A stretch of DNA of 19,806 nt from positions 1 to 19,806 of the IMG/VR virus record IMGVR_UViG_2711768067_000013. The stretch is one strand, 5' to 3'. Under the pieces are notes generated by a model. The model was given only the letters and a program-made list of their open reading frames with translations. It was not told the origin of the DNA and did no database searches. Within the stretch, counting starts at the first letter, position 1, and each line of letters begins with the position of its first letter. Positions 528 to 18,567 of this stretch are shown piece after piece. A program made the position numbers and the translations under genes. The DNA is from a virus. Taxonomy: Duplodnaviria; Heunggongvirae; Uroviricota; Caudoviricetes.

Positions 528-556
528 TTGATTTTAATGGTGCCGATAATAGGAGT
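528..556. repeat. Left direct repeat / candidate att site: 19-nt tRNA-Thr 3'-end core (538-556, tggtgccgataataggagt) plus ~10 bp of similar flank (ttgattttaa)
   Basis: Identical 19-mer recurs at 13601-13619, where it continues as a tRNA fragment; the upstream flank ttgatttt..taa is also shared with 13588-13600. The integrase gene starts ~140 bp to the right. Confidence 0.6.
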
Positions 557-1976: not shown

Positions 1977-1984
1977 ATGTAATA

Positions 1985-2018: not shown

Positions 2019-2056
2019 GATTATCTCGTTACAGAGCGTTTCATAGGCGTTTAAGG

Positions 2057-2734: not shown

Positions 2735-2781
2735 AATTTGTAATCCTTATTTAAGGGGGCTAAACAGCCCCACAGTGATGA

Positions 2782-4623
2782 TTAATAGGTTGACCCGCCT
2801 GACATAACACCCAGCGTTAATAGCTTGCTAAACTCAGCGGAGGATGCCTTTGATTTGAAGTCGATAAATTCGCTCAATCGTCCGGTGTCTGATTCGATAG
2901 TTAGCGGCACTTCTGCATTTACTTGTAATTCTGGATTGAAGTTAATAACAGGTGCAAAGGTGTAAGAAGGAGCCTTGAAAGCTTGTTGTGCTGCACTCTG
3001 TTTCAGATTTGCAATGTTTTGTCCTTCGAGACTGTATTGATTTACAGCCTGCGCCCCACCTACCGTTTCTTCTGGCATAAACCAGCTTTTAATAGTGTTA
3101 ACCAGGGAATTGCTGTTATCTGGCTTAATTGTTCCGGTGCCAGCGCCTTTATATTGATCAGGAGTGAGATTAGAAAGATTCTGCTTCATTCCTTCGTTAG
3201 ATAGTGGCGGTGCATCCCCTAAATTCTTCTGAATAGCTTCCGTCTTCTCGTCGTTTTTCATCAGCCAGTTGATTGTTTTCATTACGGCGTTAACCAATCC
3301 GCCGATAGCCTCGCCTAATTTGGTAAACATTGGCAGCATTGCAACCATGCTCTTTTTAAACTCTTCAATCACTTTCGGATCAAGAGATTTCATAAAGCCA
3401 TCAACAAAGGCGATCCCTTGTGAGTCAGAAAGCCCACTAAGTGCATTATTCAGTTCACGGAATTTAATAACGCTTTCCTGTTGTGCCTGCGTTACCCAGC
3501 GCCCTGATTCTCGTTGTTCTCGTGCTGATTGTTCCACTTCTTTAGCGGAGCGTGTCCAGTATTTAGAGGTGAGCATCAAATCATCAGCCAGATCTTCCAG
3601 ACGACTACCGATTTGTGCATCTGAATAGCCTTTAGCTACCATTCCCTGAACTGCTTTACTAACCAGACCAGCCGGATTATCAGCAAAGTCTTTTAGATCC
3701 TTTTTAGTTAGGAATCCTTCATTCATTAAAGTATTGATGCCGCTATCGCCGCCCTTCCATTCTCCTTTACCAGTTTTCTTATCAACTACATATTCAGCTT
3801 CATCATAAGATTTGGTTGCACGTTCACGCACATCTTTCATCTGATCGAGATACTTACGTTTACCTTGTTCGCCCATCATTGAATCAACGCCGTTTTTATA
3901 CGCCCATTGCTCAATATTGTTCATCTGGTTAACGTCTACACCGCCCAGCTTGGCACGGCTATACAATTCACCCAGCGTTTCAGCATTCGCAAAGCTGTTA
4001 GTAACAAATTCAGAGGCTTTGCTCATAGCCATATATGCAGCGCCAGCGCCTAAGCCGCCCAGCATAACAGCCGCAGCACCGCCGCCAATACTCCCGCTAC
4101 CCTTAACAGGTGCATAGGCTTTAGCGTGAGCGTTACGATTGCCATTAATCTTACGTTGTTGCTGTTGTAGGCGTTTCATTTGGCTATTCATACGTGCCAG
4201 ACTAATAGCGCCTCTTTCATATTGGAGGGCAATTTCTCTAGCCTGTGCAATAGCTTTATATTGTTCCGCTACAGAAAGACGGTGCAATGCGCTAATGCTT
4301 GCTCCAACGTCTAAAAGCTTTAATTCAGCCTTCTCTTTCCGTGCTGCCAGGGCTTTTTGTTCTCTTGCAACTACACGTTGAGCGGCTAATTGTGCTTTAG
4401 CATTGGCTTTATCTGCCTGTGCTTGCTTTTTAGCAATATCGTCTACGTCTTTTTTTGCTTTAGCGGTTGATTGTTTATGTGTCTTAACACGCAATTCTAT
4501 ATCTTTCACCGCCGCCATTTGTTTACGAAGTTTTTCTACTTCTGCTTTTGCTTTCTCTAATGATGGTCGGTTAACTTCGAAGGTGACAACGTTCGAGAGG
4601 CGTGCCACGTTTAGCTCTAACAT
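2782..4623 (-). CDS. 613-aa protein with an N-terminal K/A/E/Q-rich coiled-coil region (~160 aa) and a Gly/Ala-rich hydrophobic segment (GSGSIGGGAAAVMLGGLGAGAAYMAM); tape-measure-like architecture, function unproven
   Basis: Long ORF with ATG at 4623 and AGGGA upstream. The composition resembles phage tape-measure or internal virion proteins, but this is an architectural impression only. Confidence 0.6.
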   Translation of the reverse strand: MLELNVARLSNVVTFEVNRPSLEKAKAEVEKLRKQMAAVKDIELRVKTHKQSTAKAKKDVDDIAKKQAQADKANAKAQLAAQRVVAREQKALAARKEKAELKLLDVGASISALHRLSVAEQYKAIAQAREIALQYERGAISLARMNSQMKRLQQQQRKINGNRNAHAKAYAPVKGSGSIGGGAAAVMLGGLGAGAAYMAMSKASEFVTNSFANAETLGELYSRAKLGGVDVNQMNNIEQWAYKNGVDSMMGEQGKRKYLDQMKDVRERATKSYDEAEYVVDKKTGKGEWKGGDSGINTLMNEGFLTKKDLKDFADNPAGLVSKAVQGMVAKGYSDAQIGSRLEDLADDLMLTSKYWTRSAKEVEQSAREQRESGRWVTQAQQESVIKFRELNNALSGLSDSQGIAFVDGFMKSLDPKVIEEFKKSMVAMLPMFTKLGEAIGGLVNAVMKTINWLMKNDEKTEAIQKNLGDAPPLSNEGMKQNLSNLTPDQYKGAGTGTIKPDNSNSLVNTIKSWFMPEETVGGAQAVNQYSLEGQNIANLKQSAAQQAFKAPSYTFAPVINFNPELQVNAEVPLTIESDTGRLSEFIDFKSKASSAEFSKLLTLGVMSGGSTY

Positions 4624-4657
4624 GTTAATTGTTTCCCTGTATTATGATTGTTGTTTG

Positions 4658-4855
4658 TTATTGTTTTTTAGAACAGTAGTATGTAATTGCTTCAAAAGTG
4701 CTGCATCCAGTCTGAAACACACGCTGCCGCACATTATTTGCATCAATTTCTAAAAGGCGGCAAAGCGCCGATGTGTTTATAACTGATTCCTCGCTAATAG
4801 CTGCCAGTTCTTTTACAGATTTAAGAATTAATGCCTGTGAATTTTCTGTATTCAT
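4658..4855 (-). CDS. Hypothetical small protein (65 aa)
   Basis: ATG at 4855 with a purine-rich stretch upstream; lies between the 343-aa and 613-aa genes on the same strand. Confidence 0.4.
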   Translation of the reverse strand: MNTENSQALILKSVKELAAISEESVINTSALCRLLEIDANNVRQRVFQTGCSTFEAITYYCSKKQ

Positions 4856-5018
4856 TGGTTTTCTCTCACATATATATTTTTATTTGGTTTTGTAGACAGT
4901 AGAAAAACAAAAAGGGCAAAGAGATTCGTTACTGTATTTGCGCCTACAGGTTAGTTAATCCCTTTACCCTTAGCCCCGATTATTTTCAGACGATGGGGAA
5001 TCGTCTATTAACGCTTTA

Positions 5019-6050
5019 TTACGCAGCAGATCCGAAGATGATAGCTTGCGGAATGTTGTTTACTGGCAGATAAGATGTCTCAGTAACCACAGATGGGAAT
5101 TGGAATTCATCCTTGATTAGATATTGGTGATGTAACACGGCATCTTGACCTAACTCAGCATGACGCACACCAACGCCGCTATGAAGCTGGTAACACTGTG
5201 CCGCTTTATCCATTACCGGAACAATTGCGAAACCGTTCTCTCCGATGTGAGCAACAATCTCAGGAAACATTGACACATCAATAGCAGTGATCCCGCCAAT
5301 CTGGAAAGAGTCATAGGCTGGGTTAGAATCAACCATACGGGTAAACAGGGCCGTAGCACTCGCATCACCTGCATATTTCACCATGTCACTGATCAGCGGG
5401 TTAGATGACAAACCATCAGCAGCAGCGCCAGCAGCAAAGATAATTACACCAGTTCGCTTTGCAGCAAGAGCAGACCCCAGCTTTTCACTCTGTAAGCGCA
5501 CCGCTTTACGAATAGCAAGGAACGGGTTAACAGTAGTCGATGCAAAGTCGATAGCGGGTACCGTGGTTTTAGCCTGACCGTCGAGGAAGTCGAGATCACC
5601 TTGTCCGGCATATTCAGATTCAACTTTCAGTCCCAGCAGCGCGGTAATCAGATCCACTTCAACACGGTTTGCGTGTGAACGGTAATGAGCCTCAGAGAAA
5701 TCATTAACCGCTACCAGCATAGCATCAGAACGGTTTGGATATTGGCGGCTGTATTGTTCCAGGTCACGAGAAGTAACAGCGTTAATACTGCCGACGTGTT
5801 TCATCTGGAAAAGTTTGTTTGACCATTCCTGACGTTTAGAGGCGTTCCAGTCGCTTTGAGCGTAAGGCGAGGTTTCCCCAGCTACCTGCACAAACTGATC
5901 AATCAGGTCGGTAAGAAGAATGCTGTTTTCTGTATGATATTGCACATCGAACAGATCGAGATTAGTAATCAGGGTATTAAGTGCATTCTCATAAGCAAAT
6001 GGAGTTACTACCGCAGTATTAACACCAAAATATGTTGATAAATCATTCAT
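5019..6050 (-). CDS. 343-aa hypothetical protein, candidate major virion structural protein (capsid- or tail-tube-like); function not established
   Basis: ATG at 6050 with AAGGAAAA 8 nt upstream, and only 14 bp after the upstream 127-aa gene. A stem-loop follows the stop (4988-5006). No enzymatic motifs; the call rests on size and gene context. Confidence 0.6.
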   Translation of the reverse strand: MNDLSTYFGVNTAVVTPFAYENALNTLITNLDLFDVQYHTENSILLTDLIDQFVQVAGETSPYAQSDWNASKRQEWSNKLFQMKHVGSINAVTSRDLEQYSRQYPNRSDAMLVAVNDFSEAHYRSHANRVEVDLITALLGLKVESEYAGQGDLDFLDGQAKTTVPAIDFASTTVNPFLAIRKAVRLQSEKLGSALAAKRTGVIIFAAGAAADGLSSNPLISDMVKYAGDASATALFTRMVDSNPAYDSFQIGGITAIDVSMFPEIVAHIGENGFAIVPVMDKAAQCYQLHSGVGVRHAELGQDAVLHHQYLIKDEFQFPSVVTETSYLPVNNIPQAIIFGSAA

Positions 6051-6064
6051 TATTATTTTCCTTG

Positions 6065-6448
6065 TTAAGTCGTAGGGATCGCAAGTTCTTCATAACCAGC
6101 AATTACAAAGCCGAGAGATTGCAGTTTTGCAATAACACTTGCCTTTTCCATGCTGTTAAATTCAATCCCATCTTCAGCCAGAATAACGAAAGTAGGATGT
6201 GCAACCACTACGCTTTCCTGTCCTTCATAAGCCGGTTCAACTACTACGTGAGCAATATCAGATGCGGTTGTTGCTTTGGTGCCATCGGCTTTCAGCAAAG
6301 CCCCGACAATAAGATCGTCAGTGAGAGGTGAAGCCAGTTTGACGAGGCGATCTTGCAGCACTGGATCAGCAGCGTAAGCTACTACCTTACAGCGTGAACG
6401 GGAGTTATCCGCATTCACTGCTTTTAATTTTCCATATGGGTTAGCCAT
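6065..6448 (-). CDS. 127-aa hypothetical protein, possibly a head-decoration or tail-terminator-like partner of the 343-aa protein
   Basis: ATG at 6448 with AAAGGAAAA upstream, an RBS context almost identical to that of the 343-aa gene; 4-bp gap from the upstream 65-aa gene. Confidence 0.55.
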   Translation of the reverse strand: MANPYGKLKAVNADNSRSRCKVVAYAADPVLQDRLVKLASPLTDDLIVGALLKADGTKATTASDIAHVVVEPAYEGQESVVVAHPTFVILAEDGIEFNSMEKASVIAKLQSLGFVIAGYEELAIPTT

Positions 6449-6452
6449 AAGA

Positions 6453-6650
6453 TTATTTTCCTTTCAGTTGTTTAATTTTAGATTTAAGGGCATCAGCAAG
6501 ACTAACCGCATCAGCCGATTTAAATAATTGAGCAGTGGTAGAACGAAGACTTTCGGGAGTAACTCCCAACAGTGCGGCAACCTTAATGAGGTTTTCATCA
6601 CTAACAATCATCGTTTCCCCGTCTTTGCTGATAATCATTTCTTGTTTCAT
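6453..6650 (-). CDS. Hypothetical small protein (65 aa from the ATG at 6650; the track ORF extends to a TTG at 6692)
   Basis: ATG at 6650-6648 with AGGAA 9 nt upstream; first gene after the terminator-like hairpin at 6682-6731. Confidence 0.45.
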   Translation of the reverse strand: MKQEMIISKDGETMIVSDENLIKVAALLGVTPESLRSTTAQLFKSADAVSLADALKSKIKQLKGK

Positions 6651-6681
6651 AAATAACGTTCCTGTTAGTGCCAGACAAATA

Positions 6682-6731
6682 AAAAGCCCCAATGCCGTAA
6701 GAGGTTAATTCTGACCAGCAAAGGGGCTTTA
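6682..6731 (-). terminator. Terminator-like hairpin immediately upstream of the structural-like block (minus-strand sense)
   Basis: AAAGCCCC and GGGGCTTT arms (6682-6690 and 6724-6731) around a ~33-nt loop, followed on the minus strand by TTTTTATTT. The large loop makes this a weak call. Confidence 0.3.
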
Positions 6732-7326
6732 ACGTGCGGGCAATTACATAATTGATAAGTTAAACTATAAGAGGATTAAACATATCAGCAAATACACTTT
6801 TTAAATATACTTGATGATATGCTTAAAGGGTGAATAGATACTCCTGAAAACATGCTCTTAGGAAAACATGCGGAATCAATCAGGAATATCTATTCGGGGC
6901 GCGGTGGCCAACCGCTATCTTTCATGGTGTGGATGCACCAGTCAGATTTTAAGGAATCACTATTCCAATCTACTCACAGATTAAATTTTTAATAATGATT
7001 AACTACACCAACAGTAATCTACCGTTTCAGAAAATCGTTTTTACAACCAAAGCTTATAGATCCGCATTCTATAAAACCCGTTTTGCTATCAATATTTCCA
7101 AAGGTTATTGCACAATTCTTAGCTAAACTCTCTACTTGCGGCTAACGCTACGCAGATGATAGTTTTTTGACAACAACTTAATAGATTATTCTGTTACTAA
7201 CTTCTGTCATTAAATAAGAGTTTAATGATGTTAGTAAATAGTTATAAAATATAACTATCAGTGTAAGGCTCTTTAATGTTTTCGGACAAAATAAGGAGCT
7301 TTAGGATAAGCATAGATGAAAATAAG

Positions 7327-7364
7327 AGCGGGAAGGGCAAGGAGATAACACCTACCCGCTTTTA
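7327..7364. terminator. Bidirectional terminator-like hairpin in the 930-bp spacer
   Basis: agcgggaagg (7327-7336) pairs with cctacccgct (7351-7360) with one mismatch; T-tracts follow on both strands (TTTTAT plus; CTTATTTTC minus). It lies ~270 bp downstream of the 102-aa gene in minus sense. Confidence 0.4.
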
Positions 7365-7633
7365 TCAAAATTAAGCACAATGCCTAACAACATTCATCAA
7401 CACAACGTAGAAACAATCAACAATCAAAGAGGGAGTTATGATTATTCTAAAACTTCTTGAGGGGATGGAAGGTAATATTTGTTAGAGGTTAATGCCACTC
7501 AACCCTTGAGGCTATCACCTTCCATATGCAGGGATTTATGACAGTAGAAGGATTAACACCAGTCAAAACCTTTTTATCTACCCCTAATATCATTATATAA
7601 TGAAATTGTTATAAATGCAAATGATTTTCATTA

Positions 7634-7942
7634 TCACTTAGAAGAAATAGCACTTTTTGCTAAATCATCTACTAATTGCTGAATCTCTTCACTTGCAGCC
7701 TTTAACGTGCTGGCGCTGCTGCTGATGGTTTGAGTGCACAGCCTGGCATCGTCCTCTGATAGCTCTAAATCGCTCACCAGAGAGATAAAATCGTCAAGGC
7801 TTACATTCACCTTCATTAAGCTAATAACGCATTGAGAGAGCGTGTAATCGCATAAATCTGAATAGGCTTGATTTATTCTTGTTTGTAGTGAGATAGTCAG
7901 ATCTAAAAGTTGTTCCATTGCATTGCTAATATCTTCTTCCAT
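7634..7942 (-). CDS. Hypothetical acidic protein (102 aa)
   Basis: ATG at 7942 overlaps the stop of the upstream 67-aa gene (TAATG), suggesting translational coupling. Confidence 0.5.
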   Translation of the reverse strand: MEEDISNAMEQLLDLTISLQTRINQAYSDLCDYTLSQCVISLMKVNVSLDDFISLVSDLELSEDDARLCTQTISSSASTLKAASEEIQQLVDDLAKSAISSK

Positions 7943-8145
7943 TATGCGGCTTCTCCTTGTAATGCATCATTAATCATATTCAATACGATGTTAAAAGGTG
8001 TCTTGAGCGTCAGCACTTCATCACGATAACGCTCTAATGCTTCGTAGTCTTCTGTTTCTTTTGCCAGTCGGATTAACTCAGCATAGTTTTTTGCATCAGA
8101 CAGGATCATCTGAAATAATTGTGTTTCCTGTATATGGTCGATCAT
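7942..8145 (-). CDS. Hypothetical protein (67 aa)
   Basis: ATG at 8145 with AAGGAA 6 nt upstream. Confidence 0.5.
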   Translation of the reverse strand: MIDHIQETQLFQMILSDAKNYAELIRLAKETEDYEALERYRDEVLTLKTPFNIVLNMINDALQGEAA

Positions 8146-8162
8146 TGTTGTTCCTTTTATTT

Positions 8163-8549
8163 TTAGTTTGAACGTTTGTTAGATGCGAGAGTGTCGATCA
8201 GGTGCTGCATCAGATCTGTTTCTGTAACGCCGCCTACCTGATTGTTGAAACTATTAAAACCGATATAGTGCCTGTAGCTGGTAAAATTTAACAGCTGCCA
8301 TTTCTTTAATGTGCCAGGTTCTATAATCGTTGTCTTTCTTGTTCTGGGTTTGAAATACACACCATCACCCATTGATTGAATAATTTCTAATTCTTCGTTT
8401 GTAAGTGGTGGGCTGTTAGATTCTAAAATGAAGATTATCTCTTCCCCTGGAATTTCGTTATTGGTGTGTGTCGGTGGACGTTGTCTTGTTGAATTGAAGT
8501 TACTGTTTTTTTCAATACGTTTTAAGTTGTTCTTTTTCTTTCTTCCCAT
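8163..8549 (-). CDS. Hypothetical protein (128 aa), basic N-terminus
   Basis: ATG at 8549 with AGAGGGA upstream. Confidence 0.5.
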   Translation of the reverse strand: MGRKKKNNLKRIEKNSNFNSTRQRPPTHTNNEIPGEEIIFILESNSPPLTNEELEIIQSMGDGVYFKPRTRKTTIIEPGTLKKWQLLNFTSYRHYIGFNSFNNQVGGVTETDLMQHLIDTLASNKRSN

Positions 8550-8645
8550 TTTCCCTCTTTTTATGTGGATTATAAAAACTGAATGCCATAGTTACGATGA
8601 ATATCGCCATAAATGCATTTGCCATATGTATTGCCCGATCTGTTG

Positions 8646-8903
8646 TTATTGATTGTTTGTGATAAACAATTCAAAATCTTTGTTTAATTTCAAAAGACGA
8701 AATGTAGTGTGGTTAATCCCTTCATAATCCAGCACACCGAACGATGTAAAATGATTTACGTGTTGTGCGCTGTAGCCGCCTAAACTACAAAAGCTAACCA
8801 CTGTCGGTGGTGAAAACTCTATTTCCAAAATAGCTTTTAAAATGTTGTATCCGCTTTCAGTTATTTCAATAGTTTTGTTTCCTATAGTGATGTTATAAGT
8901 CAT
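8646..8903 (-). CDS. Hypothetical protein (85 aa)
   Basis: ATG at 8903 with AAGGAG 6 nt upstream. Confidence 0.5.
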   Translation of the reverse strand: MTYNITIGNKTIEITESGYNILKAILEIEFSPPTVVSFCSLGGYSAQHVNHFTSFGVLDYEGINHTTFRLLKLNKDFELFITNNQ

Positions 8904-8912
8904 TTATTCTCC

Positions 8913-9587
8913 TTAGAATGGTATTGAATCGTATATTTCACTTTTTTCTCTTAGAGATATTATCAGATCGTGAAAAGCCTGTTTCTCAAGATAGATATTC
9001 TTTGAATCTAATGCTCGTTTTACAAAATCTTCTGTTTCTTCGTGCGGTGGCTTCTTGTTATCAAGGGAAAGAAGCCAGTTAAAAATCTTTTCCGGGAACT
9101 CTGATTCCTGTATTTCTTCTTCAACGATGATTTCTGAAACATTCAATATTTCATTAGATTCGTTTTCTTTCTCAGAAGGATCAGGTAGTGATGACTCTCT
9201 AGGGGGAGTAATATGTGCATCTGTGAGAGGTAGCGCACGTAATTTTAATGGACGTTTTGGGATTCGTTCTCCGACCTCTTCTAAAAGACCGATTTTAATC
9301 ATAAGACCAATCAATTCATTAACTGTCTTACGGCTACAGCCACAAACTTTACTTAACTTCGTTTGTGTTTCAAAACATATCCCCCCTGATTTCTCCCAAT
9401 CTGAAACATAGCAATATAATTTTTGCATTTCTGCACTAAACTTCGCTTTTCCATCCTCAATATTTGAGGAGTAGATGAATTCAATCTCACAAAAGTAGTG
9501 TGGTATATTCAAAGTTCGGTCTTTAATTTCTCCTGTTTGTTGATCAACATACTGGTATTTTTCACGAATCAATTTAATTTTAGACAT
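8913..9587 (-). CDS. 224-aa putative DNA-binding protein (winged-helix-like segment SRKTVNELIGLMIKIGLLEE); candidate regulator or replication-initiator-like protein
   Basis: Track ORF 8913-9644 starts at GTG; the ATG at 9587 has a strong AAGGAG 8 nt upstream. The C-terminal half is acidic. Function is inferred from the motif only. Confidence 0.5.
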   Translation of the reverse strand: MSKIKLIREKYQYVDQQTGEIKDRTLNIPHYFCEIEFIYSSNIEDGKAKFSAEMQKLYCYVSDWEKSGGICFETQTKLSKVCGCSRKTVNELIGLMIKIGLLEEVGERIPKRPLKLRALPLTDAHITPPRESSLPDPSEKENESNEILNVSEIIVEEEIQESEFPEKIFNWLLSLDNKKPPHEETEDFVKRALDSKNIYLEKQAFHDLIISLREKSEIYDSIPF

Positions 9588-9640
9588 TAGAATTATCTCC
9601 TTATAAATCACGCTTAATGCGCTACTAAAGTGAATGAGGA

Positions 9641-9808
9641 TCACTTACCCTTTTTTTGTTTGATGTTCTCTGCTGCTTCAGTAATGATTTCTAACATCAA
9701 ATCACTGACCATAATTTGCCTTTTCTTGGCTTCAGCAAATAAAATCTTGAAAATTTCAGGGTCAACGTGTAGGTAAGTGCGTGGAATTGGTTTCTTGGTT
9801 TCGCTCAT
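9641..9808 (-). CDS. 55-aa ribbon-helix-helix-like small protein (MSETKKPIPRTYLHVDPEIFKILFAEAKKRQIMVSDLMLEIITEAAENIKQKKGK); absent from the ORF track because it is under 60 aa
   Basis: Hand-translated: ATG at 9808-9806 with AGGAGAAGGAG upstream, TGA at 9643-9641. A predicted strand followed by two helices fits Arc/CopG-type repressors. Confidence 0.45.
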   Translation of the reverse strand: MSETKKPIPRTYLHVDPEIFKILFAEAKKRQIMVSDLMLEIITEAAENIKQKKGK

Positions 9809-9829
9809 AGTTTTCTCCTTCTCCTGTTA

Positions 9830-10012
9830 TTATTCTTTCTCTGCTCCTGCCTTACGCAGTTCATCAATAATTTTTAGTGCATCGTCAAAACATTTTTCAC
9901 GCTCTGGATAACCACAGCGTCGCGCTGTGTTCCTGTTCATCCTTACTTTAAAACGATTGATCTCACCACGTTTCCAGGCTTCAACTACATCCTGGGGAGT
10001 GAAATACTTCAT
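9830..10012 (-). CDS. Hypothetical protein (60 aa), first gene of the minus-strand array
   Basis: ATG at 10012 with AGGAGG 7 nt upstream; 21 bp before the RHH-like ORF. Confidence 0.5.
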   Translation of the reverse strand: MKYFTPQDVVEAWKRGEINRFKVRMNRNTARRCGYPEREKCFDDALKIIDELRKAGAEKE

Positions 10013-10134
10013 TAATTAACCTCCTATTCTATTTGGTTAAAAGAAAAAACACCTTGCAAGCCTTGTTGGGCTTCAAAGTGCGGTGCATTGGTTTAATTAC
10101 TTAGAGGATAAGAATGTTTTCTGTCCCTAATATT

Positions 10135-10163
10135 ACTTTACCACGACTAAAAGCTTTTGTCAA
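10135..10163 (-). promoter_or_regulatory. Candidate sigma70 promoter for the minus-strand array (TTGACA, 17-bp spacer, TAAAGT)
   Basis: Minus-strand TTGACA is the reverse complement of 10158-10163; TAAAGT is the reverse complement of 10135-10140. Motif match only. Confidence 0.3.
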
Positions 10164-10324
10164 CCCCTATCCATAAAAATATTGATCATTTTCAGTGTGT
10201 TATAATTTTTCTTAGCAATTCGTGCTCTTACGGGTGCTCCTATTCTTCCTTATTCTCTAAAACGCTCTAAAACGCCCTCTGACGAGGTTTTGATAAATAC
10301 AATACATTCACTTATGTAGAGGCT

Positions 10325-10780
10325 GTTTAGCTCGCCAGAGGCTTATTTAAGGGGCTTATTTTGTATTTGTTAGGTATATGGGAAGATGATGATAGATAAA
10401 ATCTAATTTCAGACATCTTATAAAATACCTGTAAAGCTCCTCAGAAGCTCTATAACGAGCTAATCTATTACCGCTAAGTGTTTCCCTGCCTTATATACGT
10501 TTAGCTCGCCTACGGCTTGATTTAAGCGGTAGAATCTTATTTAACCTTCAACTACTAAAACCATTCTTTCTTTTTTGTTTGTTGTTGGTTGTTGTCTGTG
10601 TCTATGTGCTAACATCGCTAACGCGTAGCACACAAGGTTATTGCACTCGTCAGAGTATTGCACAATAGATTTTCTCTTAAATAGATTGATGATCGTTAGA
10701 TTGGCGTAAGCCTCATCAATGGAACTATTGAAGCGCACAGCGCAAGACTATTTAGCCTTACGCAAGCCGTAGGCTATTTG
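10325..10780. repeat. Repeat family in the noncoding region: two direct ~28-31-bp copies (10325-10352, 10499-10529) and one inverted, itself palindromic copy (10749-10780)
   Basis: Copy 1 gtttagctcgccagaggcttatttaagg; copy 2 gtttagctcgcctacggcttgatttaagcgg; copy 3 reverse complement contains GCCTACGGCTTG. A TTG/TGT-rich tract (about 10565-10610) and several CTAAC pentamers lie between copies 2 and 3. Confidence 0.5.
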
Positions 10781-10961
10781 CACATAGTAGATTACATATT
10801 CGTTGTGAGCGGCATTAGCGAACATATATCTACTAACTAACATCAACAAACAAAAACTATGTGTTATGACAAGCAGTCTAACGACTAACACTCTAACTTG
10901 TGCAAGGTTCTGGCGAATGCCAATAGATTAAGGGATAGTCAAAGACTCCCTAACGGGTATA

Positions 10962-11045
10962 CCTATAATTATTCTTATAAAGATAAAAAAGAATTATATT
11001 ATATAGTTTAATAGTTAGTTTTATTATTAGTATTATAGATGTTAG
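10962..11045. other. Very AT-rich tract next to the iteron-like array; candidate DNA-unwinding element
   Basis: About 85 bp of almost pure A/T directly upstream of the palindrome array. Confidence 0.35.
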
Positions 11046-11053
11046 TCTTATTG

Positions 11054-11224
11054 TGTAACCTTTCGTTACAACCAATCATCTGCCGATGTAACGTATCGTT
11101 ACTACCGATGTGTAATATCGTTACATTCAATAATTAGTCTATGTAACGAATCGTTACTACAAAATTTCTTACAGAGAGTATTTCAGATAGCTGAATGTAA
11201 CCCATCGTTACATCCATCGTTACA
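11054..11224. repeat. Iteron-like array: five palindromes with a TGTAAC / GTTACA core (11054-11070, 11087-11103, 11111-11125, 11142-11158, 11196-11212) plus an extra half-site (11216-11224); two units form a tandem 22-bp repeat (11083-11126)
   Basis: Read directly, for example TGTAACctttcGTTACA, GTAACGtatCGTTAC, GTAACGaatCGTTAC and TGTAACccatcGTTACA. Could be a replication origin, a recombinase res-like site or a repressor operator. Confidence 0.6.
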
Positions 11225-11661
11225 TCCATTTATCACATAACATCTGTGCAATGATCTTCTAAAAGTGTTTCTTACTATCAAAAATTAAACATCTAAAACA
11301 GGCTTAAATTCAATGTAATTGATGATTAATCCCTGTGTAATTCCTACGTAAAAATTCAATGAAAAGTAGCTTAAAAGTGCAATTCTTACTTTCTTCACTT
11401 TTACATCACTTTCGCAAAGCCTTGTGTAATGCGGCATATAGCGCATCACTGCAAAATTGTTGCTCAATAAACGTTCTATCATTTGTCGAACAAGTTTTCT
11501 TTAATGCAACAAAAAATTATTTTTTCAAAATAAACACACCATTTAATAGCTTGCTAATTTTACCAAAACGTAACTACATGCTTCTCATGCAAGACGTGTA
11601 GTGATAAAGCAGGCTAAATCACCACACTAAAAACCTTCGAATTTCGTAGTGAAAAAAGTCC

Positions 11662-11691
11662 TTTACACACCTAATCAACACGATCAATAAT
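11662..11691 (+). promoter_or_regulatory. Candidate promoter for the serine recombinase (TTTACA, 18-bp spacer, AATAAT)
   Basis: Motif match ~35 bp upstream of the ATG at 11727. Confidence 0.3.
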
Positions 11692-11726
11692 CACTACACA
11701 CAAATCAACACAGAAGGAAAATGAAA

Positions 11727-12278
11727 ATGGCTAATATTGGATACATTAGGGTATCGACTGTGCAACAAAACACAGACCGTCAATTAGCTGGAGTAACTCT
11801 TGATAAAGTCTTTGAAGATAAAGCGTCAGGCAAGAACACTCAGCGCCCACAGTTTGAGGCAATGATGAACTATGTGCGGGAGGGTGACGTGTTACACGTC
11901 CATAGTATTGATCGCCTTTGTCGTAATACAGCCGACCTTCTGGCAACGGTTGAGCAATTAACAGAGCGCGGCGTGTCTGTGCATTTCCATAAAGAAGACT
12001 TTAAGACAGGGAAGAACTCTCCCGCAGGGAATATGATGCTCACAGTGCTTGCAGCAGTGGCACAAATGGAACGTGAAATGATGCTTGAGCGGCAACGTGA
12101 AGGGATCGCCGCAGCTAAGGCCGCTGGGCGTATAGCAAAACGTGGTAATGGAAAAGCAATTGATCGAGCAGGAATTGCTGCCGCTCTCGCGAATGGTGGA
12201 TCAATTCGGAGCGTAGCAAAAGATTTCAGTGTCAGCACACAGACGGTGCAACGTATCAAGAAAGAGCAGGAAGCGTAA
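11727..12278 (+). CDS. Small serine recombinase (resolvase/invertase family, ~183 aa)
   Basis: N-terminus MANIGYIRVSTVQQNTDRQ carries the resolvase catalytic-Ser motif; a C-terminal helix-turn-helix-like region (SIRSVAKDFSVSTQTVQRIKK) follows. The ATG at 11727 is better spaced from the AAGGA than the ATG at 11721. Confidence 0.85.
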   Translation: MANIGYIRVSTVQQNTDRQLAGVTLDKVFEDKASGKNTQRPQFEAMMNYVREGDVLHVHSIDRLCRNTADLLATVEQLTERGVSVHFHKEDFKTGKNSPAGNMMLTVLAAVAQMEREMMLERQREGIAAAKAAGRIAKRGNGKAIDRAGIAAALANGGSIRSVAKDFSVSTQTVQRIKKEQEA

Positions 12279-12618
12279 TGCCTCCTGATATTTGAGAATT
12301 GTCGCTGCGTGGACCTGACGCCGCTGATCTTCTCGTTAAGCGATGATCACGTATGCGCCGATTTCAGAGAAAAAGACAGTAACTGAACTCACTATGAAGG
12401 CTAAACGCATCTTTACACTTGATGAAAACGTTCAAAAAACAACCTAACCCCAAAATTCAACAAATTGCAACACATTGTTTTTAAAAGAAAATTAAATCTA
12501 CATCAAATATTGGTTGACGTAGATTGAGGTGAATAGTAGACTATTAGGGTAAATTACCACCCTTGCAACATCATTTAATGCATGTTCTAATCTTCCTATC
12601 GTAAAACCGGAGGAAGTT

Positions 12619-12777
12619 ATGCATTTACTTTCAAAACATCTTCACACTATTCACTTTCTCGTTATTGATGTATTCGTTGTGGCTATTAGTTACCGCATTT
12701 GCATCGCTTCCAGTGAAGAGATGGACGCTGTTGCAATTATTGCTCAAGCAATGGCGATGTTAACTAAACGACTTTAA
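12619..12777 (+). CDS. 52-aa small hydrophobic protein (MHLLSKHLHTIHFLVIDVFVVAISYRICIASSEEMDAVAIIAQAMAMLTKRL); not in the ORF track
   Basis: ATG at 12619 with GGAGGA 5 nt upstream; contains a predicted membrane-like helix. Confidence 0.4.
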   Translation: MHLLSKHLHTIHFLVIDVFVVAISYRICIASSEEMDAVAIIAQAMAMLTKRL

Positions 12778-12843
12778 TAATTTCACTATCAGGTGCATAA
12801 ACACATCTTTGATCGCTGGATGTGTTATGCGCCTACTGGTGGT

Positions 12844-12996
12844 TCAATCCTTAAGCCATTTCAACTCACTAAGGAGTTTTCTTTCTTCGTTCTCTCGCTG
12901 TTTACGCTCTAGCCAGGCTTTTCCCTCTGGCGTAGACAGGAACTTACGAGCGTGAATCTTGCGGTTATTACGTTTTATAGCTGCAATGTTTTTCAT
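12844..12996 (-). CDS. 50-aa highly basic small protein (MKNIAAIKRNNRKIHARKFLSTPEGKAWLERKQRENEERKLLSELKWLKD); not in the ORF track
   Basis: Hand-translated: ATG at 12996-12994 with GAGG upstream, TGA at 12846-12844. Convergent with the 52-aa ORF. Confidence 0.4.
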   Translation of the reverse strand: MKNIAAIKRNNRKIHARKFLSTPEGKAWLERKQRENEERKLLSELKWLKD

Positions 12997-13600
12997 CGTG
13001 TGCCTCTGTATTCATATGAAAATTAACAAGTTACATACTACACAGGGAGACTACGCATAAAACACAATACAAGTAAAGATACATTTTCAAGACAATAGGA
13101 GCCATAAAGCGCCTTTGATGGTTATACCAAAAAATAAGCGCCGTAGGCGTATCCACTAAAAGGGCTTTTTCACAAAAGCTATGAAGTCTTAGCAGTTCTT
13201 CTCTTATCAGGCACCCGTTGTACTCCGGTGGACGAAACCGTGCTAGAGCTTGATTCTTTCCCGATCAAGTTAGGTTTTGAAGAGGTGGGCTTTGATCCAC
13301 TATTGCACTTAAAACTCTTCCCATCATTTAGCCTGTTTATCCTCTGCAACGTCTCACGACGTGTAGCATCATTGGACACCGCGCCAGGTGTGGAACATCT
13401 TGCTAAGAGTTTTGGTAGAAGGTTTAGAGACGGTGGCACGTCTTCCAGCTTCAAAGGAACTTGTTACGAGGTTGAGCCTGGGAACTACTCGCCCATACGT
13501 GTTACACTACCAAAGCCCATAACAACGTATAGGCGTTTGTAAGTGATAACAGAAGATACAATTTCTTAGAGAAGTTAAGCTAAGTTATTGATTTTCTTAA

Positions 13601-13646
13601 TGGTGCCGATAATAGGAGTCGAACCTACGACCTTCGCATTACGAAT
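13601..13646 (-). tRNA. Truncated tRNA-Thr (CGU anticodon) 3' fragment, 46 nt (anticodon loop through T-arm, acceptor 3' strand and CCA); att-site remnant, not a functional gene
   Basis: Reverse complement reads ATTCGTAATGCGAAGGTCGTAGGTTCGACTCCTATTATCGGCACCA, with the GGTTCGA T-loop and CCA end; sequence diverges from tRNA after 13646. As I recall it, this matches the 3' part of E. coli thrW. Confidence 0.7.
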
Positions 13647-13951
13647 TATAAGAATCCGCTTCTAATTCAAAGCATTACCCCATCAACACTGCGCTCACAC
13701 GTCCCACCACATCAAAACATGTAAAGCCTTGCAAGCCATTGCGAGGCCTTATGTGTCTCAGTTTTGTCCCACCTTGTATTACGACTTACATAGCCAATGA
13801 AGATAAACGTGACGACAAACGGCGCAGCAGTCTTCTTTTCCTTCATACTTTCCCCACCCAGCATGCATACCTTTATGCCATAACTGAAGTTTATGTCTGT
13901 TATGAGCGAAAAGCAGACATTACACTAAATTATTTAGGTTTACTTTTATCA

Positions 13952-14824
13952 TTACATTTCTAATGCTTTTTCTCTGCTAATTGATCCTTCACCATTGCAG
14001 GTTCTGCAATCTAATTTTATATTCCTGCAGTCAGGACAAGTAAATTTTTCATAATTAGAAAGATTCACCTTTGCAGCAATATATCTTTTTACGGATCCCA
14101 TTCCATTACAGATCGGACAATCTTCTCCCGCTAAACTGCCTTTTCCATTACATAAAGGGCAAGTTACAGTGGATATCACTTCATTTTCATTTTCATAAAT
14201 AAAATTGTTGAAATTTTGGGCGTTTATTGTGCTTAGTTGAACTTTTTCAATTTTTTTTATGTGATGTTCAAAATACTTTTTAATTGCCTTCTTAAGATCC
14301 TCTTTAGACGATTTCCATTGTTCTGGTGAGATCCTAATCGATTGAAATCCTTCGTTACTAGTTATTACTGCATCACGCTTGTAAGTAGACTTAATTTTAC
14401 TTTCCACATAATGAGCTATGTGGCCATCATACTCGATGCCAATAGCAGCAATCTCAACCAAATCTTGACCAATCCATCTATTTAGTCTAAGGACAAGGTC
14501 TATTGCCCAAGGCTGGGCTTTTGGGTTTATATTGCCAACCTTATACTGAGGCTCGATATAAACAATATGTCCGTTTGGGAATTGACCTTTCAGAGTTATT
14601 CGTCGTGGTGAATTTTGAAAACTATCGATTTCCAATGGACTAAACTGAGATATGAGGCCGGCAATTACCTCTATCTCAGCCTGAGATGTTTTTTCCACTC
14701 CTTGTAAACTAATAAGACCGATAGCTACTTGACGGTTAGTGGCTGGCTCAATCCTTTTAAATAGTTTCTTCTGATTATTACTAAAATTATTTTTGATAAC
14801 TTCAAGTGTTTCATCTAGTTCCAT
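13952..14824 (-). CDS. PD-(D/E)xK-type nuclease-like domain fused to a C-terminal DnaJ-type zinc finger (four CxxCxGxG-like repeats)
   Basis: Track ORF starts at GTG 14833; an ATG lies at 14824. Candidate nuclease motif D...IGIEYDGHIAHY (DUF559/Vsr-like). C-terminus has CPLCNGKGS, CPICNGMGS, CPDCRN and CRTCNGEGS. AT-rich gene. Confidence 0.65.
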   Translation of the reverse strand: MELDETLEVIKNNFSNNQKKLFKRIEPATNRQVAIGLISLQGVEKTSQAEIEVIAGLISQFSPLEIDSFQNSPRRITLKGQFPNGHIVYIEPQYKVGNINPKAQPWAIDLVLRLNRWIGQDLVEIAAIGIEYDGHIAHYVESKIKSTYKRDAVITSNEGFQSIRISPEQWKSSKEDLKKAIKKYFEHHIKKIEKVQLSTINAQNFNNFIYENENEVISTVTCPLCNGKGSLAGEDCPICNGMGSVKRYIAAKVNLSNYEKFTCPDCRNIKLDCRTCNGEGSISREKALEM

Positions 14825-14928
14825 CTCACCCACTCTATAAACTGATTATCCATATAAACTACATTATCATTTTTAACTGCTCAACATAGATTAACATAGC
14901 GCGATGCTAACAGTGTCAACTCCTGGCA

Positions 14929-14950
14929 CAGGGCTGTTGTTGCAGCCCTG
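14929..14950. other. Perfect 8-bp palindrome with 6-nt spacer (CAGGGCTG ttgttg CAGCCCTG) between the recombinase stop and the nuclease-ZnF gene
   Basis: Read directly; no flanking T-tract on either strand, so probably not a simple terminator. Confidence 0.5.
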
Positions 14951-14956
14951 ACAACC

Positions 14957-15559
14957 TTAGACTTCAATCGATTCAGAGATCTCTAACACATCATCTACTT
15001 CAATACCCAGATAACGGACTGTGCTTTCCAGTTTCTTATGGCCCAACAGAAGTTGGATCACCCGAAGATTCTTGGTTTTCTTGTAGATCAGGTAAGGTTT
15101 TGTTCTTCTCATGGAATGAGTGCTGTAAAGCGAATCTTCGAGACCAAGCTTTTCTACCCACCCATGAAAAATTCGGTTGTATTGCCGGGTAGATATGAGC
15201 TGATTAGTTCCGACCAGAAACCGAAACAAGAAGTCTTTACTATGCAAATTGCCAAGCATTATCAATGCAGCAACAGCTTCTCTTGTCCCTTTGGTTATCT
15301 CAAACTGCACAGGGCTACCGGTTTTCTGTTGCAGCACCGTAGCTCTGCTTGAAGCAGAGCTACCATATGCAACATCAGATACTTTGAGTTTGACCAGATC
15401 ACAGCCTCGTAGCTTACTGTCCAGGGCCATATCGAACTGAGCTAAATCGCGCGTTTTATCTTCCAGTTCAAGCCGGATTCGGATCCCCCAGATATGAGAT
15501 ATCTGAAGTGGTCTTTTTTGGCCGATGATACGGTCTTTGTTCCACGGTGACGTGTTCAT
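14957..15559 (-). CDS. Short tyrosine recombinase (~200 aa, catalytic domain only, FimB/FimE-like size)
   Basis: Track ORF starts at TTG 15613; the ATG at 15559 has AGGAGA upstream. Catalytic signatures: LRGCDL (Arg), HSMRRT (His-x-x-Arg), LLGH, and TVRYL (Tyr). No N-terminal arm-binding domain. Confidence 0.8.
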   Translation of the reverse strand: MNTSPWNKDRIIGQKRPLQISHIWGIRIRLELEDKTRDLAQFDMALDSKLRGCDLVKLKVSDVAYGSSASSRATVLQQKTGSPVQFEITKGTREAVAALIMLGNLHSKDFLFRFLVGTNQLISTRQYNRIFHGWVEKLGLEDSLYSTHSMRRTKPYLIYKKTKNLRVIQLLLGHKKLESTVRYLGIEVDDVLEISESIEV

Positions 15560-15595
15560 ACTCAAATCTCCTGCAATGTGGGAGATTTGAGTATG
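15557..15595. promoter_or_regulatory. Perfect 15-bp inverted repeat with 9-bp spacer (CATACTCAAATCTCC tgcaatgtg GGAGATTTGAGTATG) covering the recombinase Shine-Dalgarno and start codon
   Basis: Arms 15557-15571 and 15581-15595 are exact reverse complements. In the minus-strand mRNA the hairpin would sequester GGAG and AUG. Confidence 0.5.
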
Positions 15596-15765
15596 GTTGT
15601 CCCTTATGAGCAAATCGCAGACGTAACATCAAGTTCATAGCTACCCTGGAGCACCTTATTATCCTGTATAACGATAAGTTGGGAAGCCAGTGGCCTCACA
15701 GTGTCCCCAAGATGGTGGTGTCTCTGCACCAAAGATGCGCTAGTTCAAATGTTAGTAAATATAAT

Positions 15766-16677
15766 TTATATGTAATCAGGTAGTGAATTCAAAGCCATCA
15801 CTCTTTCTCTTTCTTTTTCTGTCATTTCTCTCATAACAATTTGAGATAGCGCTAATGTTATCTCCTTTGTTTTATTGAAGGCTTCTTTGGTATATGTTTT
15901 CCTTCCATACTCAAGTTCATTAAATGTCCCCATAATCCATTTGAGATAGAATAATGGGATGGCTAGATCACTTATATCCTGCCATCTCGTAATCGCTTTA
16001 TATTCATTCCAAAAATAATCCTCAAAATGCTTATCACAATCACCTTTACACGCATAATAAACCGCTATCACCTCATTTGGTTTGTCATCGTGTATGATCT
16101 CTGCATTGCACACAATGCCATCATAATTTTCTTCATGATGGTTTTCTATTAAGTCCTTTCCACAACGATCACATTTTATAGGTAAGTACTTATCAAAAAT
16201 CAAATGCTTGGGTTTTATTTTTTTATAGCTCTCAGGAAAGTATCTAAGGAGTAGTTTTGAGTAACCAATTCTGACTAAGTGATTTTCAATTAATTTACCA
16301 TCAAAGAATCGAAAGTCCTTTATTTTTCCATTCTCTTTTAATTGCGTCATTCTTGAATTTAAACCACTACTTGGCAGTGTTGAGTAAAATCCAATAAATC
16401 CGTCGGCATTGAATCCATCAATACGTTCTTGTATATTAATCTCATCCTTTTCTGAAACTGATTTTTTACTTGTTGCATAATGTTTACAGCTAACAAGCCA
16501 ACGAAATTTATATTTATTTAACTGACCTTGCAATTGCTCTGTGATTAAAAGATCTTTACCTCCATCTGCACCTCTATCTGGCGCGGATTCAATATAAAAG
16601 CCAAGTTCTTCAAGAAAATCACGGGCAAATGACTCCCAGGCTTCACCGTCACTATCAATTTCAGTAAAGTTAATCAT
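15766..16677 (-). CDS. Mrr-like (type IV restriction endonuclease catalytic fold) N-terminal domain fused to a Cys/His-rich C-terminal domain (303 aa)
   Basis: ATG at 16677 with GGGAG 9 nt upstream. N-terminal motifs RGADGGKDLLI and WLVSCKHY fit the Mrr_cat pattern. The C-terminus has CDRCGKD, CNAEI and CKGDCDKH. AT-rich gene. Confidence 0.65.
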   Translation of the reverse strand: MINFTEIDSDGEAWESFARDFLEELGFYIESAPDRGADGGKDLLITEQLQGQLNKYKFRWLVSCKHYATSKKSVSEKDEINIQERIDGFNADGFIGFYSTLPSSGLNSRMTQLKENGKIKDFRFFDGKLIENHLVRIGYSKLLLRYFPESYKKIKPKHLIFDKYLPIKCDRCGKDLIENHHEENYDGIVCNAEIIHDDKPNEVIAVYYACKGDCDKHFEDYFWNEYKAITRWQDISDLAIPLFYLKWIMGTFNELEYGRKTYTKEAFNKTKEITLALSQIVMREMTEKERERVMALNSLPDYI

Positions 16678-16925
16678 TTGTTAACTCCCAAGCGTTGAGA
16701 TATTTTTATATCTGTATTGTGGGCTTATTATAAGCGAGTGTAATTATAATATCATACTAACAGACACAACTTCCGCTTCTGGTACATAGCAGACCAGAGA
16801 CACTGGCGTAAAGCCATGGAGGATCGGTGGGAGGAGGTAAAAATCCTCTCATGCAAAAAATACGCAAAATCGATAACAGTTGGAAATCATTCAATACTCG
16901 CACTATCGGAAGTTCACCAGCCAGT

Positions 16926-16958
16926 CGTAGCACGTTCTTGCATACGACGTGGCTACGG
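16926..16958. repeat. Degenerate second copy of the pin terminator hairpin (direct repeat of 17947-17982), flanking the GIY-YIG gene on the left
   Basis: cgtagcacgttcttgcatacgacgtggctacgg aligns with ccgcagcacgatcttcttgcatacgacgtgctacgg, with small indels. Confidence 0.5.
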
Positions 16959-17054
16959 GTTTCGAGACCGCTCCAATCATCAAACGAAACATAAAATTAA
17001 TTCACATTATGAGGAAAAGTATCTTTTTTATACTATGTAAATTCAAAGGCTTAG

Positions 17055-17924
<870 letters not shown>

Positions 17925-17940
17925 GTCTTTAAGTGATAAG

Positions 17941-17982
17941 CATAAACCGCAGCACGATCTTCTTGCATACGACGTGCTACGG
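17941..17982 (-). terminator. Rho-independent terminator of the pin gene
   Basis: On the minus strand CCGTAGCACG pairs with CGTGCTGCGG (one mismatch) around a 16-nt loop, followed by TTTATG; begins 2 nt after the pin stop. Confidence 0.5.
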
Positions 17983-17984
17983 TT

Positions 17985-18546
17985 TCATTTATCTCCGACC
18001 GGAAACTTCTTATACAGTGTCGATATACCAACATCATAGATGATCGCCACCTTCTGGCGAGGAACGCCTGATGCAATTAATCGTCCGGCCTGCTCCCATT
18101 GTTCTGGTGTAAGTTTGGGACGACGTCCACCAATTCGTCCCTGTGCGCGAGCAGCTTCCAGTCCAGCTTTTGTTCGTTCAACAATCAGTTCACGCTCCAT
18201 TTCAGCCAGGGCACCCATCACATGAAAGAAAAAGCGCCCCATTGGGGTACTGGTATCAATTGAATCCGTCAGACTACGAAAGTTGATGCCTCGTTCGCGC
18301 AACTCCTCCACCAGCACGACAAGATGCCGCATACTGCGCCCCCAGTCTGTCCAGCTTCCAGACAACCAGCGTGTCTCCTGCCGATAGTGTCCTGAGCAGC
18401 TTTTTCAGCCCCGGTCTGTCGGACTTGGTGCCACTGATTTTATCCTCAAAAATCCGCTCACATCCCGCACAGTTCAGTGCATTGCGTTGCAAATCGGTGT
18501 TCTGGTCATTTGTTGACACGCGTACATAGCCAATAAGCATGATCAT
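17985..18546 (-). pseudogene. pin: Pin/Gin/Hin-family serine DNA invertase, disrupted by a +1 frameshift in a C5 run (18339-18343, plus strand)
   Basis: N-terminal ORF (18274-18546) reads MLIGYVRVSTNDQNTDLQ…WKLDRLG, then goes out of frame. C-terminal ORF (17985-18365) reads …GRSMRHLVVLVEELRERGINFRSLTDSIDTSTPMGRFFFHVMGALAEMERE…. Removing one G from the GGGGG run restores WKLDRLGRSMRHL. May be a sequencing error. Confidence 0.7.
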
Positions 18547-18567
18547 CCCCCTGAATAAAAACCGGAG

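Follow-up and report, generated by a model that had tools for sequence, protein, structure and literature searches.

A candidate iteron origin and its exchangeable initiator specificity domain on an integrative phage-related island of Escherichia coli

Introduction

What is the role of an array of palindromic repeats that lies beside an AT-rich tract, within DNA that has no annotated genes, on an integrated element of Escherichia coli? The question is raised by IMG/VR virus record IMGVR_UViG_2711768067_000013 (Caudoviricetes), positions 1 to 19,806, the whole 19,806-nucleotide stretch that we analyzed and refer to here as the window. A first-pass annotation had seen in the tract and its TGTAAC/GTTACA palindromes the layout of an iteron origin (an unwinding element plus initiator sites), with a res-like recombination site or a multisite operator as alternatives. 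The phasing of the dyads, the low stability of the tract, and the co-variation of the array with the N-terminal domain of a 224-amino-acid (aa) island protein all favor the first of these readings. Judging from sequence comparison, we consider it very probable that the AT tract and the TGTAAC-N5-GTTACA array serve an integrative phage-related island of 13.1 kb (positions ∼528 to 13619) as its origin of vegetative replication. The 224-aa protein, whose existing annotation is "transcriptional regulator" only, is most likely the island's initiator and the reader of the repeats.

The array and the AT-rich tract

The DNA that adjoins the array stands out within the window in both composition and predicted stability. 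The richest 85-bp stretch in the 19.8 kb lies at 10958-11042 (87.1% A+T; the runner-up elsewhere reaches 80%), and the lowest nearest-neighbor stability of any 60-step stretch falls at 10977-11037, where it is -55.9 kcal/mol against a window mean of -78.8 (standard deviation, 5.9). Positions 10962-11046, which had been described as near-pure A/T, are 85.9% A+T; the tract is real and the most AT-rich of the window, but with 12 of the 85 bases being G or C the description was a slight overstatement. Seven bases separate the tract from the first of five dyads, designated S1 to S5. In the following list, type A denotes arrays built from the repeat found in the window, and strand is given where a feature has one.

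10958..11046: AT-rich tract, candidate DNA-unwinding element; 87% A+T, least stable and most AT-rich of the window
11054-11070: S1, perfect dyad TGTAAC-CTTTC-GTTACA; invariant in all type-A arrays
11087-11103: S2, TGTAAC-GTATC-GTTACT; type-A arrays differ in the central spacer only
11109-11125: S3, left half degenerate, or a 15-bp dyad TGTAAT-ATC-GTTACA; identical in all type-A arrays
11142-11158: S4, TGTAAC-GAATC-GTTACT
11196-11212: S5, perfect dyad TGTAAC-CCATC-GTTACA
11213..11224: extra right half-site TCCATCGTTACA, a 12-bp tandem duplication; lineage specific
11032..11059, minus strand: promoter-like site GTTACA-16 nt-TATAAT (consensus scan, 10 of 12 matches)

The five palindromes and the extra half-site reported previously were thus all located, and they occur far above chance. 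Allowing one mismatch, TGTAAC-N4-CGTTAC is found window-wide only at four array loci, giving eight matches on both strands against 0.09 expected, a number that none of 200 shuffles reached. Likewise, all five occurrences of ATCGTTAC fall within the array (0.45 expected; 0 of 200 shuffles reached five). Start-to-start distances from S1 to S5 are 33, 22, 33, and 54 bp, with a further 12 bp to the extra half-site. Each of these spacings is near a multiple of 11 bp, so the sites are expected to lie on one face of the helix. The right half of S3, GTTACA, is 22 bp past that of S2, and a tandem 22-bp unit noted earlier is borne out at 11080-11101 and 11102-11123, with 77% identity between the two copies. 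The central spacers are mixed (CTTTC, GTATC, ATATC, GAATC, and CCATC). Among type-A arrays, the 12-bp duplication that creates the extra half-site is present only in the window and in related locus L001.

The promoter-like site uses the left half of S1 as its -35 hexamer and reads leftward into the AT tract, toward the operon of the 224-aa protein. We give it low weight because, in our reading of the alignment, it is not clearly kept in islands with the second array type (type B, below). No lambda, P2, or HK97 cos sequence was found near the array at up to two mismatches. Rfam gave no credible match in the whole window at the gathering threshold or in 10000-11750 at an E-value threshold, and ARAGORN found no tRNA in the window.

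Conserved DNA also lies to the right of the array, where block 11218-11502 is shared by all island types, including the diverged lineage of locus L008. It contains TGTGYAAT motifs at 11245, 11334, and 11423, with a spacing of 89 bp (nine in the window against 2.2 expected). This block may be the own site of the island's serine recombinase, or another component of the origin. To the left of the AT tract, a 12-bp perfect inverted repeat, GCCTACGGCTTG / CAAGCCGTAGGC (10508-10519 and 10763-10774), closes a 290-nucleotide stretch within 10495-10785 whose single-strand folding is far better than that of shuffled sequences (z = -4.5). This stretch is part of a noncoding leader between the AT tract and a 60-aa open reading frame (ORF). 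Related motifs of the form TTTAGCTCGCC..GGCTT occur at 10325 and 10499.

Exchange of the array together with the putative initiator N-domain

Related islands indicate which protein reads the array. We fetched 40 related loci (numbered with the prefix L) and judged the matching of types on the 36 loci with upstream DNA plus the window. Between the window and locus L002, identity is 87 to 95% over 4616-11502 except in two patches, one in the gene of the 224-aa protein and one in the array:

8913..9587, minus strand: gene of the 224-aa initiator-like protein (N-terminal winged helix, linker, acidic disordered stretch, and small helical C-domain ending in YDSIPF)
9238..9584, minus strand: swapped patch encoding the N-terminal DNA-binding domain, residues ∼2-117; co-varies with the array
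11056..11217: swappable iteron cassette, without homology in types B, C, and D, which have other repeat arrays in the same place

The 1.47 kb that separates the N-domain patch from the array, which is also the distance from the initiator gene to the array, is conserved, and the same two-patch pattern is seen with types C and D (blastn against L002, L004, L018, L023, and L017). Cassettes of all types are bounded by the same AT tract on the left and by the same right flank, CGTTACATCCATTTATCACATAAC. The tract holds a common position across all related islands; in the L008 lineage it has another sequence, yet its composition is still 87 to 88% A+T. The repeats are as follows.

Type A: TGTAAC-N5-GTTACA
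Type B: 22-bp CCCCCTAGCTCACAGTGACCTA, 2 to ∼10 tandem copies
Type C: AGGAA-N5-TTCCT in ∼23-bp units
Type D: GGGGTAACAG..CTGT.GGGG, five copies
L013 (Enterobacter; N-domain 63% identical to type A): AAAGTACC-AAAAC-GTTACTTT, four copies
L040: GGCAAT-N-ATTGCC dyads
L041: TGAGTAAAAAGGTTACAT, two copies

The array adjoining the AT tract matched the N-domain type in the window and in 36/36 loci with upstream DNA. This match was independent of the type of C-domain, since it was seen in the combinations A/I, A/II, B/I, B/II, C/I, C/II, and D/I. The N-domain is the sole island component that co-varies with the array; the C-domain of the initiator does not follow array type, and a 55-aa ribbon-helix-helix (RHH)-like protein is 98 to 100% identical across type-A and type-B islands. 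The numbers in complete E. coli genomes are similar for the two partners: among 741 genomes with the flanking region, 76 carry the type-A N-domain patch and 79 the full type-A array, and a further ∼170 genomes carry partial type-A array relics only. Comparison of the islands shows that the array and the N-domain of the putative initiator behave as a matched specificity pair, exchanged between islands as a module.

The arrangement extends to distant relatives, in which an AT tract followed by dyad or semipalindromic repeats lies upstream of the gene, at ∼0.95 kb in L041 and at 1.4 to 1.5 kb in L013 and L040, with three further variants of the site. The sites of L013 keep the GTAAC half-site and the 6-5-6 geometry of type A. 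Subrepeats converge on an A-tract in L013 (AAAAC center) and L041 (AAAAAGG center), while the window sites have mixed centers.

Some islands carry what appear to be stacked origins. In L030 (3950-4480) and L034 (1950-2450, reverse strand), beyond an AT tract with a type-B array lies another AT tract with an array of its own, which is type C in L034 and consists of GGGTATCA-N5-TGATAGGGG sites in L030 (type E, for which no matching initiator was seen); a lone D unit comes next, and in L030 it is succeeded by lone B and A units. Cassettes of types C and D can also carry a single B or A relic at their right edge (L017, L023, and L025). K-12 YagK (208 aa), from the same chromosomal site, was considered as a type-B initiator and rejected as unrelated.

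The 224-amino-acid protein

Alignment of the E. coli variants revealed that the protein is modular. An N-domain of ∼115 residues, which occurs in unrelated types, is joined by the invariant linker ALPLTDAHITPP and an acidic stretch to a C-domain of two types. The window protein falls just below the cut-off for Pfam family HTH_36, and in PHROG it matches the families "replication initiation protein" and "replication initiation O-like." Each of N-domain types A to D independently matches PHROG replication-initiator, O-like, DnaD-like, or replisome-organizer families. Other PHROG matches of the four types were to generic DNA-binding families or families of unknown function, and none was to a terminase or repressor family. 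A Pfam scan of the four types (E values up to 0.05) returned HTH_36 and generic winged-helix families only, with neither RepA_N (PF06970) nor Phage_rep_O, and PHROG scans of both C-domain types gave no usable match.

An AlphaFold model of the protein (mean predicted local distance difference test [pLDDT] score of 68; 77 to 92 in the N-domain core) has a beta-hairpin followed by a winged helix. [quoted passage not shown] That structure, 4RO3, is the N-terminal domain of PLE RepA, whose structural neighbors likewise include 4PTA and DnaD and which lacks BLASTP-level similarity to plasmid RepA proteins (Barth et al. 2020, PMC7145576). The earlier statement that no obvious Rep is encoded therefore needs correction, given the initiator-type winged helix of the N-domain, its PHROG matches to replication initiation and O-like families, and its co-variation with the array.

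Taken together, the locus offers five phased dyads plus a half-site, an adjacent easily melted AT region, and, as judged by comparison of the islands, a cognate initiator on the same element. Several observations weigh against an origin. The sequence support for an initiator is modest: PHROG E values run from 1e-4 to 5e-8 (1e-4 to 1e-5 for the O-like family), the HTH_36 match is subthreshold for type A, the two Pfam initiator families named above are missing, and a PDB profile search by sequence returned nothing significant, with no detectable similarity to 4RO3. Model confidence is medium and the winged helix is a common fold, and a winged-helix protein on dyads that overlap a promoter-like site could be a regulator. 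No DnaA box (at up to one mismatch) was found near the array, and Pfam and PHROG scans of the island proteins detected no helicase, primase, or loader. The 40 loci include many close copies and amount to ∼7 to 10 independent comparisons. Among type-A arrays, 2 of ∼14 variable positions fall in half-sites where ∼5 would be expected, too few differences for a contrast between half-sites and spacers to be informative. Finally, we found no publication on the island or on its protein accessions in the searchable literature.

Alternative explanations

The best-surviving alternative is that the array is a multisite operator and the 224-aa protein only a transcription factor, which might for example repress the leftward S1 promoter and in this way control its own operon, with no start of replication. 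The promoter-like -35 hexamer inside S1 reads toward the operon of the 224-aa gene, the winged-helix fold is generic and common to MarR, ArsR, and LexA-type regulators (as both the structure and the Pfam side matches indicate), and co-variation proves a matched pair, not replication. We nevertheless regard this explanation as unlikely. More than 1 kb separates the array from the operon's first gene, the operon has a better-placed promoter-like site of its own at 10135-10163, and the S1 promoter is not evident in type-B islands. A copy number that ranges from 2 to ∼10 tandem units, as in type B, is usual for iterons but not for operators, an AT tract of conserved composition always adjoins the array, the PHROG matches include no repressor family, and the top structural neighbor is a proven origin binder. 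Initiators of iteron plasmids often repress their own promoters too, so the roles of operator and origin could coexist. An operator for the RHH-like protein is also disfavored, because the 55-aa protein does not track the array and is 100% identical in islands with an unrelated array.

Less probable still is a pac-like packaging site or a centromere-like partition site. Here the 224-aa protein would be a small-terminase-like or centromere-binding adaptor whose C-domain contacts a helper terminase or motor. Such an adaptor would suit an N-terminal specificity domain joined to a C-terminal partner domain, pac sites and centromeres can be repeat arrays bound by winged-helix or RHH proteins, and an island that has capsid-like and tail-like genes without a terminase needs the packaging machinery of another element. 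However, no island protein has a terminase, ParA, or ParM family match, the N-domain has no terminase or ParB-type match in PHROG or Pfam, and its structural neighbors are replication initiators. Moreover, the RHH-like protein does not co-vary with the array, and the adjoining AT tract, whose composition is kept, would have no obvious role.

A res-like or other recombination site, suggested by the nearby gene of the serine recombinase (small resolvase/invertase type, 185 aa; 11721-12278, 500 bp from the array) and by a resolvase gene that adjoins the module in Enterobacter locus L013 too, can be rejected with near certainty: neither the array nor its type tracks the recombinase, which is 99% identical in L004 beside a type-B array, has no tblastn match in L002, L003, L009, and L011 where the array is kept, and is replaced by a tyrosine recombinase fragment in L005-L007, and the 17-bp dyads are too short for resolvase subsites, which in the res sites of Tn3 and gamma-delta are 25 to 34 bp with 12-bp inverted ends.

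Proposed mechanism and the C-terminal tip

As for the origin itself, the phasing of the dyads, the easily melted DNA beside them, and the initiator-type fold of the protein lead us to infer binding, opening, and recruitment. Dimers of the 224-aa protein would bind the five dyads through the N-terminal winged helix, with all sites on one face of the helix. The resulting nucleoprotein complex would destabilize the adjoining AT tract, and the acidic linker, the C-domain, and the (I/L)PF tip of the initiator would then bring in a helicase and a primase from the host or from a helper phage, so that replication could begin. The claim that no helicase or primase is encoded was upheld by our scans.

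Every family member whose end is intact has a terminal (I/L)PF after acidic or aromatic residues. Examples are YDSIPF in the window (where the IPF codons, 8916-8924, are the last three of the gene), YEDFDIPF, FDDFDIPF, EDSDDIPF(F), STIPF, and FDALPF, on C-domains that are otherwise unrelated. Ends in PF or PW occur in ∼22/145 representatives, against ∼0.2% expected from residue frequencies, and some family members have an internal DLDD(I/L)PF. The AlphaFold model places the tip after the last helix, at the low confidence that a flexible tail would be expected to show. The tail of E. coli SSB, the protein that binds single-stranded DNA, ends in DFDDDIPF, a motif at which PriA, the chi subunit, DnaG, RecQ, and other proteins dock. 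The likeness suggests, purely as a hypothesis, that the initiator recruits host replication proteins; mimicry of the SSB tip would explain initiation without an encoded helicase or loader. We found no precedent in the searchable literature for an SSB tip on an initiator.

A more far-reaching proposal joins all of these points, and as a single claim we hold it only tentatively, as possible though rather doubtful. The islands would be an undescribed phage-satellite-like family with a two-part, freely exchangeable cassette. Their helicase-less initiator would mimic the SSB tip and recruit to the melted AT tract an SSB-interacting host protein, such as PriA (and so the restart primosome plus DnaB), chi of the clamp loader, or DnaG. 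Incompatibility of coresident islands would account for the many iteron types and stacked relics, or else an arms race with phage nucleases directed at origins, as in PLE/ICP1.

Comparison with known systems

The closest known system, studied experimentally, is the RepA/ori module of PLE. PLE RepA, which PLE needs in order to replicate, binds semipalindromic iterons at the origin; it has neither helicase nor primase activity and depends on the helper phage (PMC7145576). For PLE to replicate, the RepA allele and the origin must be cognate, and the N-domain moves between elements together with ori as one module (Barth et al. 2021, PMC8263062). Both elements are integrative phage-related islands whose origin, in a noncoding region, has semipalindromic repeats served by a small initiator without helicase or primase activity, binding in the E. 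coli island being predicted; in both, the N-domain and ori are exchanged as a module, and N- and C-domains are shuffled independently. The E. coli initiator differs in having no sequence similarity to 4RO3 and no Pfam RepA_N match, and in its host. Its dyads are 17 bp, whereas PLE has three repeats of ∼30 bp, and the E. coli islands have at least four main specificity types compared with two in PLE. The E. coli island also differs in the 1.47 kb between gene and origin, in the SSB-tip-like (I/L)PF C terminus, and in its capsid-like and tail-like genes.

Lambda ori and O provide a second parallel. Both systems have several dyad iterons, presumably dimer bound, beside an AT-rich region, and both lack DnaA boxes; both initiators join an N-terminal origin-binding domain of variable specificity to a C-terminal partner-binding domain. 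The island protein also matches PHROG O-like families. Unlike in lambda, the island origin lies outside the initiator gene (1.47 kb away), there is no P-like helicase loader, and the protein is shorter (224 aa) and has no Phage_rep_O match. The RepA_N plasmid initiators of Firmicutes (RepA of pSK41 and pTZ2162; 4PTA and 4PT7) share inverted subrepeats in their iterons and a variable C-domain thought to recruit host factors. RepA_N iterons have inverted subrepeats that converge on an A-tract (PMC7145576), as do the iterons of L013 and L041. The window spacers are not A-tracts, the 224-aa protein has no sequence-level membership in RepA_N, and the element is a Gram-negative chromosomal island, not a plasmid.

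Other satellites resemble the island in having an iteron and AT-rich origin of their own and an initiator specific for their own iterons, namely SaPI/PICI (Staphylococcus aureus pathogenicity island/phage-inducible chromosomal island), in which iterons flank an AT-rich region and a Rep helicase and primase are encoded, and P4, with ori/crr and alpha (both summarized in PMC7145576). Their initiators are helicases or primase-helicases that suffice for autonomous replication, whereas the E. coli island encodes neither activity. No island ORF scanned matched PICI Rep helicase or primase, P4 alpha primase-helicase, AlpA, or psu-delta-sid in Pfam or PHROG.

Systems of this kind, in which a satellite-type island pairs an iteron origin with a modular RepA_N-like initiator, are already known. 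The member appears to be new: the literature that we searched mentions neither the island family nor its specificity cassettes (four or more), and neither the stacked relics of cassettes nor the SSB-like tip. This reading would assign a role to 1.7 kb of DNA without annotation, and to a protein recorded only as a transcriptional regulator, in an island of 741/5,426 complete E. coli genomes. With at least four natural pairs of initiator and iteron specificity on a near-identical backbone, the islands offer a system for studying how winged-helix initiators change their DNA targets. They also permit a test of what drives replicon swapping in E. coli islands, whether incompatibility or phage counterdefense, the latter having been shown for Vibrio PLE. 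If the likeness to the SSB tip is functional, it would provide a route to the host replisome for an element without a helicase, loader, or primase.

The island and its distribution

The window derives from the E. coli chromosome: over positions 1-556 it matches K-12 yagP with the adjoining flank, and over 13588-13646 the same K-12 junction. The following repeats flank the island, and the empty K-12 site served for comparison.

528..556: left attachment repeat, in direct repeat with 13588-13619
13588..13619: right attachment repeat, which enters the 3′ part of a tRNA-Thr-like sequence (ptwF/thrW site)

This direct repeat of 29 to 32 bp places the array inside a 13.1-kb integrative island at the thrW/ptwF site; homology to related islands stops at 13646. 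The genes of the island, from left to right, are as follows.

Tyrosine integrase
Dit-like gene
Tape-measure-like gene
Capsid-like gene (Phage_cap_E in variant islands)
Several small ORFs
224-aa protein, 55-aa RHH-like ORF, and 60-aa ORF
1.7 kb without annotated genes (AT tract and array)
185-aa serine recombinase

The capsid-like gene is lambda E-like, and the island has no terminase, portal, protease, or lysis genes; Pfam and PHROG scans of its proteins likewise found no terminase or portal family. Its gene content does not fit the gene sets of PICI, capsid-forming PICI (cfPICI), P4-like elements, or PLE, and it may represent an undescribed satellite family. A second long stretch without ORFs of at least 50 aa lies on the side of the structural genes, at 6700-7634, with the next most AT-rich and unstable segments at 6742-6826, 7170-7254, and 7584-7668.

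The 901 bp around the array are present in 741/5,426 complete E. coli genomes (∼14%), with up to four copies per genome. Related islands occupy several chromosomal sites, including sites beside tRNA-Leu, near proBA, and near ygeR. A scan of one genome per species found only four loci, so the family appears largely confined to Escherichia and close relatives. Phage records gave no match, and a plasmid collection gave two only, one of them a 4.9-Mb record. The contig of L011, labeled "MAG: Bacillota bacterium," contains the E. coli island module at 96 to 100% protein identity and is most likely misbinned or a contaminant. Because the strand of a 183-aa ORF in L004 is the opposite of that in L003 and L009, an invertible segment was considered, but it was rejected, as blastn shows differing gene content.

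Neighboring features

Directly past the right end of the island, positions 13650-17950 form a second inserted block. It encodes a 293-aa CXXC-repeat protein (with a weak restriction endonuclease-like match), a 218-aa tyrosine-recombinase fragment, a 303-aa Mrr-like restriction endonuclease, and a 274-aa GIY-YIG protein, and it is probably a defense or accessory islet in tandem at the same tRNA site. At 17985-18546 (minus strand), a Pin/Hin-type invertase lies beside tail-collar and tail-fiber-assembly genes in an e14-like arrangement. It is split into overlapping ORFs of 90 and 126 aa and is probably a frameshifted pseudogene.
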